From Alphaproteobacteria bacterium (lineage in GTDB: Bacteria > Pseudomonadota > Alphaproteobacteria > Rs-D84): DNA of 64,000 nucleotides. The notes below the pieces were generated by a model that searched no databases, had not been told where the DNA came from, and saw nothing but the letters and a program-made list of their open reading frames with translations. Of the stretch, positions 3,951-57,034 are shown one piece after another. The stretch lies in contig JAWPOF010000012.1 in the NCBI GenBank assembly GCA_033345275.1, positions 32,443-96,442 of the forward strand. Direction: 5' to 3'. Numbering within the stretch: the first letter of the stretch is position 1; each line of letters starts with the position of its first letter. The translations under genes and the position numbers were made by a program.

Positions 3951-4000
3951 TTGTTATCCTTTTGGGGTAATTTTAATCTAAATAAATAAAAAGGTCAAAT

Positions 4001-4717
4001 ATGAGTGGACACAGTAAATGGCACAATATTCAGCATAAAAAGGGCGCAGCCGACGCGGCACGCAGTGGGCTGTTCACAAAACTGGCGCGTGAAATTACCA
4101 TGGCGGCAAAGTTGGGGGATAAAAACCCAGATAACAATCCACGCCTGCGTTTGGCAATTTTAACCGCGCGCAAGAATTCTATGCCGAACGACAATATCAA
4201 ACGCGCAATTGACAAGGCGTCGGGTTCAAATACTGAAAATTACGAAGCGGTGCGCTATGAAGGTTATGGCCCAGGTGCGGTGCCAGTTATTGTAGAGGCA
4301 TTAACCGATAACCCACGTCGGACTGTGCCGGAAATTCGCAATATCTTTGGCAAAAATGGCGGAAATATGGGCGAAGAAGGTTCTGTTGTGTTTATGTTCA
4401 CACGCGCGGGCCAGATTATGTACCCCGCATCAATCGGTAAAACCGAAGATGAAATGATGGAAATTATTATGGAGGCCAATGCCGATAATTTGGAGGCGTC
4501 TGAAGAAGGATTTATCATCACAACCAAACCAGAAGATTTTATCACAGTACAAAAATATCTGGCCGATAAATTGGGTGAACCAGAACAGGCTGAATTGACT
4601 TGGTTGCCAAATATGCCAATGGATTTGGACGATGAAGCCTATGCCAAGTTGGAAAAGTTGGTGGATGCGCTGGATGCCAATGATGATGTGCAGAAGGTTT
4701 TCACCGCTGCAGAATAA
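4001..4717 (+). CDS. yebC: YebC/PmpR family protein
   Basis: MSGHSKWHNIQHKKG, NPRLR, YEGYGPG, DDVQKVF. Confidence 0.96.
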   Translation: MSGHSKWHNIQHKKGAADAARSGLFTKLAREITMAAKLGDKNPDNNPRLRLAILTARKNSMPNDNIKRAIDKASGSNTENYEAVRYEGYGPGAVPVIVEALTDNPRRTVPEIRNIFGKNGGNMGEEGSVVFMFTRAGQIMYPASIGKTEDEMMEIIMEANADNLEASEEGFIITTKPEDFITVQKYLADKLGEPEQAELTWLPNMPMDLDDEAYAKLEKLVDALDANDDVQKVFTAAE

Positions 4718-4817
4718 ACAAAAATAATTCATCTAAAAACAAAAACGACAACGCAGTGTACAGAAGCTACATAAGTTGTCGGTTTTGTTTTTATCTAAAA
4801 CATTTTTGTTTATTCTG
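4710..4817. repeat. Long imperfect palindromic element, copy 3 (core inverted, different stem)
   Basis: Perfect 16-bp outer stem CAGAATAAACAAAAAT/ATTTTTGTTTATTCTG, ATCT/ATCT loop, 18-bp inner stem, core GCAGTGTACAGAAGCTACATAA. Confidence 0.8.
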
Positions 4818-4844
4818 TTTCAAGTGCAAGGGGGATATTACTGA

Positions 4845-4873
4845 TTGACTTTTTGTGGAGATGGTAATAATAT
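4845..4873 (+). promoter_or_regulatory. Sigma70-like promoter for the thrS leader
   Basis: TTGACT-N17-TAATAT; leader ATG lies 7 nt after the -10. Confidence 0.6.
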
Positions 4874-4880
4874 TGATGTT

Positions 4881-4937
4881 ATGAAAATGTTTGGTTTGTT
4901 CTTTATGACAACTACTACAACCCCGTTGGGGGTATAA
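4881..4937 (+). CDS. Thr-rich leader peptide MKMFGLFFMTTTTTPLGV upstream of thrS
   Basis: Five consecutive Thr codons ACA ACT ACT ACA ACC; 78 nt upstream of the thrS ATG. Confidence 0.85.
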   Translation: MKMFGLFFMTTTTTPLGV

Positions 4938-4943
4938 ATTCTA

Positions 4944-4972
4944 TTGCGGTGCGTGGCACAAATTCTTATAAT
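4944..4972 (+). promoter_or_regulatory. Second sigma70-like promoter between the leader and thrS
   Basis: TTGCGG-N17-TATAAT. Confidence 0.55.
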
Positions 4973-5015
4973 CAAACAGTTAATTAATTCAAGAAAATAT
5001 AAAAAGGTTTTTGTT

Positions 5016-6749
5016 ATGGCATATGATATCGAATTAATGCGTCATTCGTTGGCACACGTTATGGCGGCGGCGGTTAAAAAATTACACCCAGAGGTTAAGT
5101 TTGCGGGCGGTCCCGCGATTGAAAATGGGTTCTATTATGACTTTGATACAGAATATCGTTTTTCCGAAGATGATTTTGAAAAAATCGAAAAGGAAATGCG
5201 CGATTTAATCAAATCTAATGGCCGTTTTGAACAGAGAAATGTTAGTCTGGACGAGGCCAAGGAAATCTTTGCAGACCAACCATATAAAATGGAATGGTTG
5301 AACGAATATGATGCGGCGGGCGAAGCGTTGTCGATTTATACTTTCCGTGATTTTGTTGATTTGTGTCGTGGGCCACACGTGGAAAGTTCCAAGGATTTGC
5401 CACGTGATTCTTTCAAAATTCGCAGCGTTGCCGGTGCGTATTGGAAGGGGGATTCGAAAAACAAAATGTTGCAGCGTATCTATGTGGACGCATTTGCAAC
5501 ACGCGAAGAATTAGAAGCGTTCCTTAAAATGCAGGAAGAGGCCGCCGCGCGTGATAATCGTAAATTAGGTAAAGATATGGATTTGTTCCATTTTGAACCG
5601 GAATATGCGCCGGGTTCAGTTTTCTGGCATGACAAAGGGTACAAGATGTATCGCCGTCTGATCGAATATGTACGTGCGCGCCAGGAACGGGCAGGGTACC
5701 AGGAAATTTCAACGCCGGCCGTTATGGACAGATGTCTGTGGGAACGCAGCGGGCACTGGGCAAAGTATGGTGAACATAACTATTCGGGTAAAACTCAGGA
5801 TGGCAAGGTATTCTGTATCAAACCAATGTCGTGCCCGGGTGGTATGTTGGTGTTTGGACATGGATTGCGTTCGTACAAAGATTTGCCGTTGTATATGGCA
5901 GAATTTGGCAAGGTTCATCGTTACGAGGCGGCAGGTGGTTTGTCGGGGCTGATGCGTGTGCGTGAATTTACCCAGGACGATGCGCATATTTTCTGTACAG
6001 AAGAACAGTTAGAAGAAGAAGTTGTCAAAATCTTGCGCTTTATCAAAGATATTTATGGGAAATTTGGTTTTGATAAAATTACCATGAAATTGGCAACGCG
6101 TAAAGAATCTGAATTCCGTATTGGGTCGGACGAAATCTGGGACAAGGCTGAAGGTGCACTAAAGCGCGCGTTGGATGCGAATGGGATTGAATACGAAATT
6201 GCCGAAGGGGATGCAGCATTCTATGGGCCAAAAATTGATAACTATCTGCGCGATTCTATGGGGCGCGTATGGCAGTGCGGTACGGTTCAATTAGATATGA
6301 ATCTGCCGGAACGGTTTGATTTGAGTTATGTTGGTGAAGATGGTGAAAAGCATCGTCCGATTATGTTGCATCGTGCGATGTTGGGATCTATTGAACGATT
6401 TATGGGTGTGTTGCTGGAATCGACGGGTGGTAATTTGCCATTGTGGTTGTCGCCAGAGCCGGTGGTTGTTGCGCCGATTTCACAAAAACATGCCGATTAC
6501 GCAAATGAAGTTGTCGAAATGTTGCATAATGCCGGTGTGAACGCGCGTGCAGATTTGAGAGATGAAAAAGTTAACTATAAAATCCGTGAATTGTCGTTGG
6601 CAAAAACGCCAATCATCGCGGTAGTCGGTGAAAAGGAAATGGCAGACAGAAATGTCACACTGCGCCGTTTGGGGGTCGAAAAACAGGAATCAATGCCACT
6701 GGATGCATTTGTTGAAATGATGAAAGATAGTGTCAAGATGCCATTGTAA
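5016..6749 (+). CDS. thrS: Threonyl-tRNA synthetase (lacks N-terminal TGS domain)
   Basis: RHSLAHVMA, DLCRGPH, KPMSCPG, MRVREFTQDDAH, AFYGPKID, HRAMLGSIERF. Confidence 0.97.
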   Translation: MAYDIELMRHSLAHVMAAAVKKLHPEVKFAGGPAIENGFYYDFDTEYRFSEDDFEKIEKEMRDLIKSNGRFEQRNVSLDEAKEIFADQPYKMEWLNEYDAAGEALSIYTFRDFVDLCRGPHVESSKDLPRDSFKIRSVAGAYWKGDSKNKMLQRIYVDAFATREELEAFLKMQEEAAARDNRKLGKDMDLFHFEPEYAPGSVFWHDKGYKMYRRLIEYVRARQERAGYQEISTPAVMDRCLWERSGHWAKYGEHNYSGKTQDGKVFCIKPMSCPGGMLVFGHGLRSYKDLPLYMAEFGKVHRYEAAGGLSGLMRVREFTQDDAHIFCTEEQLEEEVVKILRFIKDIYGKFGFDKITMKLATRKESEFRIGSDEIWDKAEGALKRALDANGIEYEIAEGDAAFYGPKIDNYLRDSMGRVWQCGTVQLDMNLPERFDLSYVGEDGEKHRPIMLHRAMLGSIERFMGVLLESTGGNLPLWLSPEPVVVAPISQKHADYANEVVEMLHNAGVNARADLRDEKVNYKIRELSLAKTPIIAVVGEKEMADRNVTLRRLGVEKQESMPLDAFVEMMKDSVKMPL

Positions 6750-6832
6750 TTAATAAGCAAAGAGCAAGGCGCAAAGAATAATTTATTTGTGATTTGGGCT
6801 TTGTCTTTGCGGAAATAATAAAAGGAACATAT

Positions 6833-6976
6833 ATGAAAAAAATAACTTTACTATTTGCTTTTTGTTCGGTGCTGGTTGTTTTGGCGGGGTGTGCAAAAAA
6901 GTGCGAGGTAGAACCAATCGTAGAACAGAATCAAAAACTGATTGTGCCACCAAATTTTGGCAATATGCCAAAGTAA
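6833..6976 (+). CDS. Small lipoprotein (DUF3035-like)
   Basis: Lipobox LAGC, LIVPPNF motif, SD AAGGA. Confidence 0.65.
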   Translation: MKKITLLFAFCSVLVVLAGCAKKCEVEPIVEQNQKLIVPPNFGNMPK

Positions 6977-7053
6977 AAAAATATGCCAAAGCATTTTGTC
7001 TTTGGCTTTTTTTGTGGTATAATATACGTAATTAACAAGAGGGAGATTTTATC

Positions 7054-7827
7054 ATGAATGATGATAACAACTTGGATTTATTAGATTTGGATGATAATGG
7101 TACTATGGATACCTTGCCAGAAGTAACACCTTTTTCAGCGCCACGTCCCAAGAAACCTTGGCTGTTGTTAAGTGTGGGGGTTATTGTTATTATTTTGGCG
7201 ACTTATGTCATTATTCGTGCAATTGGTGATGATTCTTCGTCTTCGATAGAAGTTGATTTGGATGCACCTGTTGTTATGGATGCTGGCTCGGGCGAGGCTG
7301 TGTCCGTTGATATGAATGTGATGCCTTCGGTTGAACCAGTTCAGGCGCAACCGCAACCAGTGTCTTTGCCCGCACAACAGCCGGCCCAGCAGCCTGCACA
7401 ACAATCGGCCCCGCAGCCCGAGGTTAAAGCCCAGCCAGTGGCACAACCAACTGCGGGTGTGCCTGTGCGTGTTGTAGAAGAGCGCAAGGAAGTTAAATTT
7501 AATCCAACGGCAAAACCGGCCGCAAAGCCTGCAACGAAACCAGTTGCAAAGCCCGAACAAAAAACTGTTGATAAGCCAGTCGTAGGTTCGTGGTATGTGC
7601 AATTTGGTTCGTACAGTACACGCGCGTTGGCAGAAAGTGCGCAACGTCAGATTGCTAATGCTCATAAGAGTTTGTTTGAAGGGTATCAATTTGTTATCTT
7701 GGCGGCGCAGTTGAAAGACGGCAAGACAACATATCGTTTGCGTGTTGCGTTCAAGACCGCAGCAGATGCGAATGGTTTCTGTCGGAACGCGAAGTCCGAT
7801 GGATTGGATTGTTATGTTGCACAATAA
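7054..7827 (+). CDS. SPOR domain membrane protein (FtsN-like)
   Basis: N-terminal TM, Pro/Gln linker, C-terminal WYVQFGSY...YRLRV...A..FC...C. Confidence 0.85.
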   Translation: MNDDNNLDLLDLDDNGTMDTLPEVTPFSAPRPKKPWLLLSVGVIVIILATYVIIRAIGDDSSSSIEVDLDAPVVMDAGSGEAVSVDMNVMPSVEPVQAQPQPVSLPAQQPAQQPAQQSAPQPEVKAQPVAQPTAGVPVRVVEERKEVKFNPTAKPAAKPATKPVAKPEQKTVDKPVVGSWYVQFGSYSTRALAESAQRQIANAHKSLFEGYQFVILAAQLKDGKTTYRLRVAFKTAADANGFCRNAKSDGLDCYVAQ

Positions 7828-7844
7828 GTAAATAGGAGTTACAG

Positions 7845-8084
7845 ATGTTTGGACGTTTTGGTTGGGCCGAAATTCTGGTTATAGTCGTACTGGTGGTGAT
7901 TTTGTTCGGGTCGAATAAGATTCCGGGTATGATGAAAAATTTGGCAGATGGATTGAATGTGTTCAAAAAAGAAGTCAGAAAATCCGATGCAGGTAAGCCA
8001 GAATCAAAAAAAACAGCGAAAAAGGTCACCGATAAACAGACAGCAAAAAAACGTGTCGTAAAAAAAGCGTCCGCTGGTAAATAA
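7845..8084 (+). CDS. tatA: Twin-arginine translocase TatA
   Basis: TM helix then LFGSNKIP and amphipathic helix ..FKK. Confidence 0.92.
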   Translation: MFGRFGWAEILVIVVLVVILFGSNKIPGMMKNLADGLNVFKKEVRKSDAGKPESKKTAKKVTDKQTAKKRVVKKASAGK

Positions 8085-8086
8085 GA

Positions 8087-8112
8087 AAAATCCCGCCAAA
8101 TGGCGGGATTTT
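8087..8112. terminator. Bidirectional terminator
   Basis: AAAATCCCGCC-AAAT-GGCGGGATTTT. Confidence 0.8.
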
Positions 8113-8117
8113 ATTCG

Positions 8118-8191
8118 TGGTGCCCTAAGCAAGAATCGGACTTGCGACTCGTCCTTACCAAGGACGTGTTTTACCACTAGACTATTAGGGC
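8118..8191 (-). tRNA. tRNA-Thr(GGT)
   Basis: Cloverleaf GCCCTAA/TTAGGGC, anticodon arm CGTCC-TTGGTAA-GGACG, encoded CCA; T-loop TCCGATT. Confidence 0.93.
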
Positions 8192-8262
8192 CTGGAATTG
8201 CTGTGTTTATTATACGGTTTCGGGATAAAAAATCAAGAGCAAAAGCATAATTTTTATCAGAT

Positions 8263-8290
8263 AAAACACCCCAGTTTTTCTGGGGTGTTT
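8263..8290 (-). terminator. serS terminator
   Basis: AAAACACCCCAG-TTTTT-CTGGGGTGTTTT. Confidence 0.75.
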
Positions 8291-8292
8291 TG

Positions 8293-9570
8293 TTAGTGTT
8301 TGCCACCAATTTTGGTGCGACCGCCCATTAATGGTTGCAGGCATTTTGGAATGTTGACTGAACCATCTGGGTTTTGGTGGTTTTCAATCACAGGTACAAG
8401 TGCACGTGGCAGGGCGATTCCTGTGTTGTTTAATGTTGCGCAGAATTTTAATGTTCCGTCGGATGCACGGAAACGTGTGTTTGTGCGACGGGCCTGGAAT
8501 TGACCAATCGAAGAACAAGAGCCCAATTCGCGGTATGTATTTTCGCTGGGGAACCAGGCTTCTACGTCGTGCATTTTGACCTTGTTAAAGCCCATGTCGC
8601 CGGTGCAGGCTGCAATAACGCGATATGGTAATTCCAAATCTTCCATAATTTCGCACAGGTTGCTTAATAAATGTTTGTGCATTTCATCAGACTGTTCAGG
8701 GGTGCAATAAATGTATTGTTCGACCTTGTTAAATTGATGTATACGCACGATTCCGCGGGTGTCGCGACCGGCAGCGCCCGCTTCTTTGCGGAAACATGGT
8801 GAATAGCCAGCGTATTTAATTGGCAGATCTGTTTCATTTAATACTTCGTCTGCGTGCAGGGAATTTAATACAATTTCAGCTGTTCCCGCCAGACAACGGT
8901 CGGTGTCGGTTAACATAAATACATCGTTGTTCATGATGGACAAGTCTGAACCCATAAAGTGGCCCGCATTAAATATGGTTTGGGGCTTTGTAATCGATGG
9001 GCAATTTACGAATGTAAATCCCTTGGCGATTAATTTTTGCAGAACGTATGTTTGAATGGCCAGTTCCAGTTCCGCCGCTTCGCCAAACAAGGCATAGGTG
9101 CGACTGCCACAAATGCTGGCGATTTTTTCTGGTTTCCACCAACCATTCATTTCCAATAATTCCCATTGTGGGCGTGGGGTAAAGTCAAATTCGCGTGGTG
9201 TGCCAACCCGTTTGATTTCCACGTTTTCTGTATCGTCGCGACCAATTGGCGCATCGGGTGACGGAATTTGTGGAACGCAGTGTAATAAATCATTTAACTG
9301 GGATTCTTTGTTCGCCAATTCCGCCATGTCGGCCGCGATTTCGTCTGCGATTGCTTTGCTGCGTGCAATTAATGGTGCGCGGTCCGTTGCGGTTGGAATT
9401 TCGCGTGTGATTTTATTTTTTTCGGCGGTTTTTGCCTGGGTTATTGTTTTTAATTCTCGGACGCGCGTGTCCAGTGCCAAAATTTTATCGGTATGGTCGG
9501 GTATCCCCCTGGTCGCGCAGGCGTTTTTTATAATGTCTGGGTTTTCACGAATAAATTTTATATCCAACAT
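8293..9570 (-). CDS. serS: Seryl-tRNA synthetase
   Basis: MLDIKFIREN, GTAE, CFRKEAG..GRDTRG..R.HQFNKVE, TLNNT. Confidence 0.97.
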   Translation of the reverse strand: MLDIKFIRENPDIIKNACATRGIPDHTDKILALDTRVRELKTITQAKTAEKNKITREIPTATDRAPLIARSKAIADEIAADMAELANKESQLNDLLHCVPQIPSPDAPIGRDDTENVEIKRVGTPREFDFTPRPQWELLEMNGWWKPEKIASICGSRTYALFGEAAELELAIQTYVLQKLIAKGFTFVNCPSITKPQTIFNAGHFMGSDLSIMNNDVFMLTDTDRCLAGTAEIVLNSLHADEVLNETDLPIKYAGYSPCFRKEAGAAGRDTRGIVRIHQFNKVEQYIYCTPEQSDEMHKHLLSNLCEIMEDLELPYRVIAACTGDMGFNKVKMHDVEAWFPSENTYRELGSCSSIGQFQARRTNTRFRASDGTLKFCATLNNTGIALPRALVPVIENHQNPDGSVNIPKCLQPLMGGRTKIGGKH

Positions 9571-9630
9571 GTTTTTGTTCCTTAGGTTTTTATTTGGGAT
9601 ATATGTTATTATGGTGCGAAATGTTTCGCA

Positions 9631-9659
9631 ATTATAAAATCAAAAAAGTGTACGATAAA
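9631..9659 (-). promoter_or_regulatory. Second sigma70-like promoter between the leader and serS
   Basis: TTTATC-N17-TATAAT starting right after the leader stop; followed by palindrome TGCGAAA-CA-TTTCGCA. Confidence 0.45.
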
Positions 9660-9713
9660 CTATTCCCCCAACGGGGATGAGATGGATGAGAAAAATACAA
9701 AACCTGTTTTCAT
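9660..9713 (-). CDS. Ser-rich leader peptide MKTGFVFFSSISSPLGE upstream of serS
   Basis: TCA TCC ATC TCA TCC then CCG TTG GGG; 89 nt upstream of the serS ATG. Confidence 0.85.
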   Translation of the reverse strand: MKTGFVFFSSISSPLGE

Positions 9714-9722
9714 ACTGATTTA

Positions 9723-9751
9723 ATTATGAATTTTTTTAAGATGTAATGCAA
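9723..9751 (-). promoter_or_regulatory. Sigma70-like promoter for the serS leader
   Basis: TTGCAT-N17-CATAAT; leader ATG lies 9 nt downstream. Confidence 0.55.
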
Positions 9752-9824
9752 TAAATTTGTTTGCGTTGGGTGCGTTTGTTTTGTATGCTGGGGCACGAAT
9801 AGGGATTAAGGAAGGTAAAATATT

Positions 9825-10724
9825 ATGTATGATGTAATTATATTAGGGTCGGGGCCAGCAGGGTTGACGGCGGCGCTGTACACGGCGCGCGCAAATAAAA
9901 AGACAATTGTTTTGGGTGGTGACAGACTGGGCGGTCAGATGGCGGGTATTGCAACACTGGAAAACTATCCAGGGTGGGCCGGTTCCGGTTTTGAACTGGC
10001 GGAATTTATGAAAAAACAGTGCGAAACATTTGGGGCGGCGGTTGAATTTGTTTCGGCCAAGAATATCACAGGTGATGCGGAATCGGGGTATTGTGTTCTG
10101 TGTGATAATGGTGCAGAATATGTTGGTAAAACTGTTATTATTGCCACGGGGGCCAGCCCGCGTAAATTGGAAATCGAAGGTGCGCGCGAATTTATGGGGC
10201 GTGGCGTGTCCTATTGCGCAACATGTGACGGATTCTTTTATAGTGGAAAAAACGTCGTTGTTATGGGTGGCGGAAACAGTGCGTTGAACGATGCGTTGTA
10301 TTTGGCGGATTTGGCCAAGACAGTTAAGATTGTGTATCGTAAATCTGCATTCACACGGGCCGAGGCGGTTTTGCGTGAACGGGTCAAGGCGCGCGATAAT
10401 ATTGAATGTCTGTTTAATACAGATTTGGCAAAGATTGCGGCAAAACCAGATTCAGATGATGGCGAGTTGATTATTACAACGACCGATGGTGCGGAAATCG
10501 TTGCCGATGGTTTGTTTGTCGCCATAGGGCACGAGGCAAATACAGATTATCTGACCGAGGATGTCAAGCGTGATGCATTGGGGCGTATTGCTCCGGATGC
10601 TTTGCCGGCCGGTATGTATGTCGCAGGTGATGTGCACAGCGAATTAAAGATGCAAATTGCGACGGCTGTGGGGACGGGGTGTAGTGCGGGGATGGACGCC
10701 ATACTGTACCTGAACAAAAATTAA
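9825..10724 (+). CDS. trxB: Thioredoxin reductase
   Basis: GSGPAG, GVSYCATCDG, GGGNSA, AGDV. Confidence 0.95.
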   Translation: MYDVIILGSGPAGLTAALYTARANKKTIVLGGDRLGGQMAGIATLENYPGWAGSGFELAEFMKKQCETFGAAVEFVSAKNITGDAESGYCVLCDNGAEYVGKTVIIATGASPRKLEIEGAREFMGRGVSYCATCDGFFYSGKNVVVMGGGNSALNDALYLADLAKTVKIVYRKSAFTRAEAVLRERVKARDNIECLFNTDLAKIAAKPDSDDGELIITTTDGAEIVADGLFVAIGHEANTDYLTEDVKRDALGRIAPDALPAGMYVAGDVHSELKMQIATAVGTGCSAGMDAILYLNKN

Positions 10725-56851: not shown

Positions 56852-56906
56852 GAGATACGAATACAATGATAAATAAAAGTTTAGTTAAGTTTGCCCGTTG
56901 GGCAAA

Positions 56907-57034
56907 TAAAGAGCAAAGAGCAATGAGCAAAGAGCAGAGAGCAATGAGCAAAGCGCAATTAATGCACTTGTCCCACGAAGCCTTGGCGCAGTGGGATTCC
57001 GCCACTAACCACTTGCACTTACACTAACCACTAA
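56907..57034 (+). repeat. Mosaic of small repeats: (AAAGAGC)n heptamers, TCCCAC..GTGGGA hairpin, CCACTAA heptamers
   Basis: About 7 heptamer units at 56907-56960, hairpin at 56971-56996, CCACTAA-type units at 57002-57034. Confidence 0.8.

Follow-up and report, generated by a model that had tools for sequence, protein, structure and literature searches.

The window analysed here, a stretch of 64,000 nucleotides of contig JAWPOF010000012.1 (assembly GCA_033345275.1; 959,598 bp in 13 contigs, 43% G+C) from an alphaproteobacterium of the order Rs-D84, contains the aminoacyl-tRNA synthetase (aaRS) genes thrS and serS, each of them preceded by a short upstream open reading frame (uORF) with a run of codons for the amino acid charged by the enzyme encoded downstream (Table 1). 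Both uORFs, with their cognate runs, had been proposed in an initial annotation of this DNA, and both were confirmed where that annotation had placed them. They end 78 nt (thrS) and 89 nt (serS) ahead of the ATG of the synthetase gene, and no other ORF of up to 60 codons in this 960-kb genome starts with ATG, carries a cognate run and closes with P-L-G-x-stop. Candidatus Enterousia and the order Rs-D84 are described as bacteria with reduced genomes of about 0.9 Mb that lack amino-acid biosynthesis (PMC12306168), and the loci at which the thrS leader was found belong to Candidatus Enterousia or to uncultured Alphaproteobacteria, of animal-gut origin.

In both leaders, a promoter (P1) lies immediately before the uORF, the uORF ends in a CCCC/GGGG hairpin (HP1), and a TATAAT box accompanied by a second hairpin (HP2) follows. 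At thrS, HP1 spans from the final Thr codon (ACC) to 1 nt ahead of the stop codon, and the TATAAT box is part of a second promoter-like element (P2).

Table 1. Features of the thrS and serS leaders and of other loci named in the text. Positions are those of the window; the prefix G000 marks positions elsewhere in the genome.
Feature	Position	Strand	Details
P1 promoter of the thrS leader	-35 TTGACT 4845-4850; -10 TAATAT 4868-4873	+	17-nt spacer; consensus scan; 7 nt to the uORF ATG
thrS leader ORF	4881-4937	+	MKMFGLFFMTTTTTPLGV-stop; five Thr codons at 4908-4922
HP1 of the thrS leader	4920-4933	+	A-CCCC / GUUG loop / GGGG-U
P2 promoter-like element	TTGCGG 4944-4949; TATAAT 4967-4972	+	17-nt spacer; read from the sequence
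HP2 of the thrS leader	4949-4959	+	GUGC-GUG-GCAC, within the P2 spacer
thrS, threonine--tRNA ligase	5016-6749	+	577 aa; translation; PF00587, 165.9 bits
P1 promoter of the serS leader	-35 TTGCAT 9751-9746; -10 CATAAT 9728-9723	-	17-nt spacer; 9 nt to the ATG
serS leader ORF	9713-9660	-	MKTGFVFFSSISSPLGE-stop; four Ser codons
HP1 of the serS leader	9664-9677	-	U-CCCC / GUUG / GGGG-A
TATAAT box and HP2 of the serS leader	9636-9631; 9630-9615	-	HP2 is UGCGAAA-CA-UUUCGCA
serS, serine--tRNA ligase	9570-8293	-	425 aa; PF00587, 119.9 bits
tRNA gene	8121-8191	-	63 bits; immediately downstream of serS
Repeated intergenic element	56889-56960		GTTTGCCCGTTGGGCAAA hairpin, then a run of (A/T)GAGCAA heptamers
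cysS leader			MTIRFINFYCCR-stop; ..FYCCR-stop, CC
ileS leader			MKQTAIIIIK-stop; IIII
hisS leader			..FHHARAGEY-stop in relatives; one His in this genome, HH in most relatives
ileS	G000:C6:11641-14664 (L286)		1007 aa; isoleucine--tRNA ligase by TIGR00392
T-box-like leader of aspS	G000:C12:13979-14409 (L281 101-283)	-	RF00230, 30.7 bits, E 6.5e-4
lysS	G000:C1:85647-86077 (L282)		terminator-like hairpin with U-run upstream
Paralogue pairs of thrS, trpS and tyrS	G000:C7:257302-259065, C7:85807-86805, C1:21601-22800
rho	G000:C7:20733-20957		PF07497, 99.4 bits

The thrS and serS loci of relatives were anchored on the proteins, which yielded 29 thrS loci of the same genus with upstream DNA. Orthologues of thrS were present in 61 of 61 relatives, and the uORF was found in frame and with the same P1 geometry in all 29 of these loci (a further one, L009, was cut by a contig end), as well as in 4/4 further loci of the genus. 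In other genera of the order, ten of 24 loci carried the thrS leader, 13 had none (11 of them from one genus) and one was too short. Of 30 serS loci of the genus, 13 had the uORF, all with a common P1 geometry (TTGCAT/TTGATT-17-TATAAT), to which L057, truncated at its contig end, adds a fourteenth; the other 16 lacked it. Conservation at orthologous loci, one of the tests put forward in the initial annotation, was thus complete within the genus for thrS and only partial for serS.

A search for CCCC-loop-GGGG hairpins revealed a third member of the group, MKLLFFIFETYTTTPFGV-stop, upstream of a second thrS gene (thrS2), whose product is 52% identical to that of thrS. A covariance model of the leader element, built from 52 leaders, gave three matches at E <= 1e-7 in this genome, corresponding to thrS, thrS2 and serS. 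Within the genus, the same model matched 148 of the 151 genomes, with a total of 233 matches and one to three in each, and in a sample taken across the order it matched 122 of 151 genomes (117/121 in family f1, 0/19 in family f3). These large searches used stricter filters, under which weak matches are lost, and in several genomes leaders missed by the model were recognized by eye. In addition, 70 unique Thr leaders were picked by a pattern that forces ACC-CC at the hairpin, with a median of six Thr residues per leader.

The initial annotation had regarded both uORFs as leaderless, with a -10 box 7-9 nt before the ATG and no Shine-Dalgarno (SD) sequence. This description was supported. An SD-like triplet is absent before both the thrS and the serS uORFs, and among the 70 unique Thr leaders, 69 had 6-10 nt from the -10 box to the ATG and one had 4 nt. 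With a promoter of the sigma-70 type placed 6-10 nt ahead of each start codon, the two uORFs are very probably leaderless. Ordinary leaderless genes seem to exist in this genome as well, which makes such starts plausible here: a strong promoter lies 6-9 nt before the first ATG in 16 of 598 long ORFs, none of these 16 with an SD, versus 5 of 5773 internal ATGs. In Caulobacter, 375 leaderless mRNAs have been reported (PMC4117421).

Concerning the ending of the uORFs, the initial annotation had described a shared peptide template closing in PLG-x-stop. This claim did not survive the comparison of leaders. In the 70 unique Thr leaders, the ending was PLG in 48, PAG in 16, PVG and PTG in two each, and PKG and PCG in one each, and in other families the stop codon falls within the hairpin loop (..TTP-stop); such loop variation and stop-in-loop variants rule out PLG-x-stop as a peptide motif. 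What is kept is the stem, (A/U)CCCC-loop-GGGG(U/A), found in 29/29 thrS loci around a variable loop, and the conserved ending is an RNA hairpin rather than a peptide motif. The codons used at the hairpin point in the same direction. The Thr codon at this position is ACC-CC in all 29 protein-anchored thrS loci, the only set for which this count is meaningful because the pattern used for the 70 leaders forces ACC-CC, and the remaining Thr codons of the leaders are ACA (206), ACT (107), ACC (11) and ACG (10), with a genome share of ACC of 24%. Similarly, the Gly of the ending is encoded by GGG, which makes up 21% of the Gly codons of the genome. The residue after this Gly is Val (GUN) in thrS and mostly Glu (GAA) in serS because the closing pair of the stem is A-U in the former and U-A in the latter, so that the serS pair would compensate for the thrS one. 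The stem of most thrS leaders can be lengthened to 8 bp (UACA[A]CCCC / GGGGUGUA) by recruiting the final Thr codons together with the Val codon and the first two bases (UA) of the stop codon; this extension is weaker in the thrS copy of the window (GUA UAA).

Thr leaders with the same ending were also found in Bacteroidota (..TTTTPxGV-stop; L162, L163, L169, L175, L176, L178, L180, L186, L208, and L212), in Alistipes, Flavobacteriales, Marinilabiliaceae, and Carboxylicivirga, where they precede thrA (aspartate kinase/homoserine dehydrogenase I) or thrB (homoserine kinase). They share the 3' module of the thrS leaders, consisting of the Thr run, an ACCCC-NNN-GGGGGU hairpin, Val, the stop codon and a U-rich tail, but differ in their longer N-terminal parts and, mostly, in a much stronger U-run, which is long and unmistakable after the hairpin in several of them (e.g., L163, L178, L212, and L180).

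The other aaRS genes of the genome were surveyed by locating 21 genes with ten Pfam families, reading their upstream regions and assigning identities by NCBIfam, with a cut-off of score >= 8 in the promoter-plus-uORF scan. Leaders with cognate codons were found on eight of the 21 genes, and in all eight the codons matched the gene: thrS (T5), thrS2 (T4), serS (S4), accessory trpS (WW), hisS (H), cysS (CC), accessory tyrS (YY-Y) and ileS (IIII). When the residues of each leader were ranked by enrichment, the cognate one came first in five leaders, second in two and fourth in one. The scan gave no leader for the other 13 genes, among them valS, leuS, metG, argS, gltX, proS, glyS, pheS, alaS, core tyrS, and core trpS, within a coverage that excluded pheT and aaRS outside the ten families. 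Two genome-wide scans were of less use. One of them, for a promoter followed by a short ORF with residue runs, ranked the two thrS leaders at the top and was insensitive, missing the leaders of trpS, hisS, and cysS, and also that of serS because its promoter score of 8 fell under the cut; the other returned 130 candidates and was too noisy on its own.

The leaders of this set differ in their spread across the genus, for which about 30 genomes were surveyed. The ileS leader was present in 29/29 loci, and that of hisS appeared as an ATG-started uORF in 26/28, with the other two retaining the His codons and the hairpin. The cysS leader was found in 23/30 loci, 17 of them with a promoter of its own and six with the leader directly behind a tRNA gene. 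Accessory trpS and accessory tyrS carried leaders in 2/2 and 3/3 loci, respectively, while core trpS, without a leader in this genome, had one in 10/26 and core tyrS in at most 1/27. A permissive model search over five genomes, with 20 lower-scoring loci inspected, added two serS leaders, four of hisS, three of core trpS (..FCWRIAA-stop), two of accessory trpS (..FTWWL-stop, with the stop in the hairpin loop) and two of tyrS (..GFYYAY-stop); the remaining seven were ordinary gene starts that merely looked leaderless.

The modular, genome-wide system envisaged in the initial annotation, in which one chassis would be reused with only the sensor codons exchanged, therefore stood in part: the design recurs, and the upstream survey found matching codons on eight of the 21 aaRS genes, but 13 showed no leader and there is no single chassis. 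The close design is shared only by the two thrS genes and serS, and hisS, trpS, and cysS are looser relatives. The leaders of ileS and tyrS carry terminators with U-runs, and that of ileS, with a 1:2 hairpin and a GC hairpin followed by a U-run, was alone in folding into a complete attenuator of the classical kind. When the RNA was masked as if a ribosome stood on the last Ile codon, an alternative hairpin took the place of the terminator, and masking as by a ribosome at the stop codon brought the terminator back.

Several other observations on aaRS genes were made along with this survey. The ileS product is of the long type and also scores on the models of the mupirocin-resistant MupA/MupB enzymes (596 and 580 bits), far under their cut-offs of 1900. 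Upstream of aspS lies a T-box-like leader containing GGGTGGCACCGCG, weak against the gathering score of 93 and of a type that stands out in an alphaproteobacterium otherwise using leader peptides. The lysS gene is preceded by a terminator-like hairpin with a U-run (GGGCGCAC..GGGUGCCCG) and by a short ORF, MKLFIKRFY-stop, with an SD; this region is possibly another attenuator. Paralogue pairs exist for thrS, trpS, and tyrS, and the accessory copies all have leader peptides; the two of them that were surveyed are rare, with accessory trpS in 2/31 and accessory tyrS in 3/31 genomes of the genus. Finally, the repeated intergenic element of the window occurs in five other places, giving six copies in the genome.

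The match between codons and genes in 8/8 leaders, together with the frame conserved in 29/29 thrS loci, supports the proposal of the initial annotation that these are cognate-codon leader peptides, and on these sequence grounds it is very likely that the uORFs sense the charging of the cognate tRNA. That they are the leader peptides of ribosome-mediated attenuators, tuning thrS and serS to the charging of tRNA-Thr and tRNA-Ser, is a step further that we consider somewhat probable. Frame, codons, hairpin, promoter geometry and codon-gene match are established here; uORF translation, ribosome stalling and the role of HP1 are the inferred parts of the model.

A very different possibility is that the conserved block is promoter architecture at the DNA level, with P1 and P2 in tandem and a palindromic operator, and that the uORF is a by-product or encodes a small hydrophobic functional peptide. 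The two promoter-like elements do have a constant 17-nt spacing at thrS, and HP2-like palindromes overlap P2. In all 70 Thr leaders P2 was present, with a spacing of 16-18 nt and a score of 8-10 of 12. The arms of the thrS HP2 vary by species (GCGG/CCGC, GCGA/UCGC, GCGC/GCGC, and GCAC/GUGC), and the minimum free energy of its region is -5.7, versus -2.0 for shuffles (standard deviation 1.9). Whereas the thrS HP2 is located within the P2 spacer, its counterparts in serS and hisS come right after the TATAAT; in serS, box and hairpin were found in five of the 13 leaders (L031, L032, L033, L037, and L055), and in hisS, P2 reads TTAGCA-18-TGATATAAT, an extended -10 overlapping the stop codon of the uORF. 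However, such an architecture leaves unexplained the frame, ATG and stop codon kept in 29/29 loci, the third-position variation in the ACN runs and the 8/8 cognate match, and a functional peptide is unlikely because the N-terminal residues are poorly conserved. We therefore regard this explanation as highly improbable.

Under the attenuator model, P1, a strong promoter, would start the RNA at the AUG or a few bases from it, and a 70S ribosome would translate the uORF without an SD. After an A/U-rich start, rich in F, the ribosome would meet four to eight cognate codons, the last of which provides the first bases of HP1, with the stop codon in or just past the hairpin and a U-rich tract behind it. 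When the charged tRNA is scarce, the ribosome would wait on the cognate codons and cover the 5' arm, HP1 would be blocked, and transcription from P1 would reach the synthetase gene; when it is plentiful, the ribosome would leave and HP1 would form, most likely terminating or destabilising the P1 transcript. P2, behind the uORF, could then serve as the basal promoter of an essential enzyme, with P1 and the attenuator as its inducible input. The cognate codons of the thrS and serS leaders lie 0-15 nt ahead of HP1, a stretch of mRNA that a ribosome with such a codon in its A site covers, as known from toeprinting. In leaders as compact as these, the ribosome itself would have to serve as the antiterminator.

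That HP1 terminates transcription intrinsically unless a stalled ribosome prevents it is a reading we hold tentatively, and close to balance. With its U-rich tail, HP1 looks like the terminators of this genome: the 16 nt after it contain 8.3 U on average (n=69), the 132 CCCC-loop-GGGG hairpins of the genome have a mean of 7.7, and U-rich tails stand behind most of these in a genome with a T fraction of 0.287. A terminator scan listed the serS HP1 as terminator-like and did not list that of thrS. The Bacteroidota leaders, in several of which the shared 3' module runs into a long U-run, and the ileS attenuator of this genome also speak for the model. The energy of HP1 is -9.4 kcal/mol in both leaders.

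A number of results weigh against attenuation at HP1. In this window the hairpin has only 5 bp, and the U-tract after it is interrupted (UGUAAUUUCUAUUU), begins about 5 nt from the stem and is displaced by the stop codon. HP1 folds no better than dinucleotide-preserving shuffles (z -0.48 for thrS and -1.24 for serS), and no support came from the thermodynamic z-scores of the hairpins and whole leaders together (-0.48, -1.24, +0.41, and -0.57); the case thus rests on conservation and not on thermodynamics. Since the thrS stem is invariant, it offers no covariation, and that of the hisS HP1 is weak, with three cells of double changes that were matched by 17 of 500 shuffles; this analysis used 19 of 28 loci, nine being left out for lack of a clean segment (eight, plus the mis-match L311). 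RNAalifold on the 29 full thrS leaders returned HP1 only and no conserved long-range helix, and neither RNAalifold nor constrained folding found an antiterminator alternative for thrS or serS. P2 and the conserved HP2 are not explained by the attenuation model. Moreover, HP1 would be hidden under a ribosome at the stop codon as well, and a working switch would therefore require RNA polymerase to pause or the ribosome to be released quickly. To this must be added that RNA contigs bridging HP1 show that read-through RNA exists, and they are silent on regulation.

The lack of a canonical U-run directly abutting HP1 would also suit a Rho-dependent form of attenuation, in which a stalled ribosome hides a site in or beside the uORF where Rho could load. 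Once the ribosome has gone, Rho would bind and halt transcription short of the synthetase gene, with HP1 as a pause or accessory element. The genome carries a rho gene, and Rho-dependent termination has been raised as an option for actinobacterial cys leaders without terminators (PMC1262725). However, the leader of about 80 nt behind the uORF is poor in C (0.11 in thrS and 0.15 in serS, with three to four YC dimers; C and G are both 0.18 in the uORF) and therefore makes poor material for a Rho utilization (rut) site, and P2 would bypass Rho control. Overall, we find this mechanism unlikely.

RNA evidence came from four metatranscriptome runs, as assembled contigs of relatives that covered 0.06-0.14 of the sampled words, uncovered parts being no evidence. 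Contigs beginning at window positions 4882 and 4895 extend through HP1 and P2 into thrS, and the bin 4700-4873 had zero depth in all four runs; contigs cannot prove a start, and these give a weak hint of a leaderless P1 transcript able to read through. The serS leader was almost uncovered (0.29 in one run for bin 9572-9745). The same contigs, running from the uORF start into thrS, and the position of the uORF at the 5' end as given by the promoter geometry would fit a role in mRNA stability as well. In that case, ribosomes stalled at the 5' end would shield the P1 transcript from 5'-end-dependent decay and so increase the amount of read-through thrS or serS mRNA, with HP1 bounding the protected zone; the erm genes are a known precedent for mRNA stabilised in this way by ribosomes stalled in the leader. 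Nevertheless, such a role explains neither why the hairpin opens in the last cognate codon nor why the Bacteroidota versions have a full U-run terminator, and it seems improbable to us.

Folding of the leaders also bears on translational control, in which the U-rich uORF would pair with the SD region of the synthetase gene until a stalled ribosome frees it, in the style of the mycobacterial Cys 'ribulon', where release of the SD has been shown (10.1101/834739). In some leaders the AAAGG SD region finds its complement in the stretch of F codons (UUCUUU), and pairing between SD and uORF was predicted at P > 0.5 in nine of 29 thrS and four of 13 serS leaders. However, the mean unpaired probability of the SD in thrS leaders was 0.55 when free, 0.61 with the uORF masked and 0.47 with a shuffled uORF (n=29), with corresponding values of 0.48, 0.55, and 0.47 in serS (n=13), and the thrS leaders have no conserved long-range helix. 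Sequestration of the SD by the uORF was thus not supported on average over the 42 folded leaders, and we consider this mechanism very unlikely.

If the attenuator reading is correct, at least eight synthetases of this reduced organism may be tuned without a protein regulator, through a self-contained sensor of about 100 nt that owes its specificity to a handful of codons. In a lineage without amino-acid biosynthesis (PMC12306168), synthetase genes are almost the only sites at which the supply of amino acids could be sensed at the RNA level. The leaders would offer a natural test bed for the minimum RNA structure that an attenuator requires and for the coupling of leaderless translation to transcription, and they flag unannotated small ORFs that genome pipelines miss.

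When these leaders are compared with known systems, the closest parallel in principle is provided by the classical attenuators (trp, thr, his, phe, and leu operons; pheST of gamma-proteobacteria), in which a short ORF with cognate regulatory codons likewise precedes a gene related to the same amino acid, and a ribosome stalled on the hungry codons chooses between RNA structures; the ileS leader has their full 1:2 / 2:3 / 3:4 layout. Unlike them, the thrS and serS leaders have neither an SD nor a separate antiterminator, and rely on a single hairpin of 5-8 bp starting from the last cognate codon; the stop codon separates the stem from the U-rich tract, and another promoter comes directly afterwards. 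The initial annotation had put the system forward as a candidate new one. That view must be given up, as leader-peptide attenuation of aaRS genes is already in print, established for pheST and predicted for trpS and leuS of Streptomyces (PMC1262725), and so are a translated leader coding sequence (CDS) before trpS in Caulobacter crescentus (PMC4117421) and the leaderless poly-Cys small ORFs (sORFs) of mycobacteria (Canestrari et al., bioRxiv 10.1101/834739). Nothing is overturned by the present leaders, whose principle was established by the classical attenuators.

The Caulobacter trpS case is alike in that there, too, a small translated CDS precedes an aaRS gene of an alphaproteobacterium with many leaderless mRNAs; in the portion of that report available to us it concerns one gene, without a mechanism or a shared design (PMC4117421). 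Resemblance to the mycobacterial 'ribulon' lies in leaderless sORFs at the 5' end, in several loci each with an sORF of its own and in ribosome pausing, and the cysS leader found here (..FYCCR-stop) is a poly-Cys example like the mycobacterial ones. There, however, the stalled ribosomes open a structure hiding the ribosome-binding site (10.1101/834739), which folding does not support here, and the targets in the present case are aaRS genes for at least seven amino acids.

T-box riboswitches do the same job of raising aaRS expression when the tRNA is uncharged. A T-box binds the uncharged tRNA directly, without translation. No T-box match was detected at thrS or serS (window 4000-10500, E <= 5), aspS being the only T-box-like match among the aaRS upstream regions, and no Rfam family fitted the leaders in that part of the window (E <= 5), in seven loci including Bacteroidota or in 18 aaRS upstream regions. 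In a broader view, which we offer as a rather speculative one, the thrS and serS leaders would represent a minimal attenuator without an antiterminator, with the sensor codons as the 5' arm of a terminator-like hairpin, a leaderless start and a basal promoter downstream, copied onto thrS, serS, hisS, trpS, and cysS as an aaRS 'ribulon' of auxotrophic, genome-reduced gut symbionts in the place that the T-box has in Firmicutes, and its Thr module would have arisen independently in, or spread to, the thr operons of Bacteroidota.

Our literature search found nothing on aaRS leaders in Enterousia or Rs-D84, on a serS leader peptide, on the compact design or on the Bacteroidota thr leader, and older surveys, one of 2010 on attenuation of aaRS operons among them, may cover some of these. 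In conclusion, the leaders upstream of thrS and serS are real and conserved and reach beyond these two genes, and they are a variation on established leader-peptide attenuation rather than a new principle.

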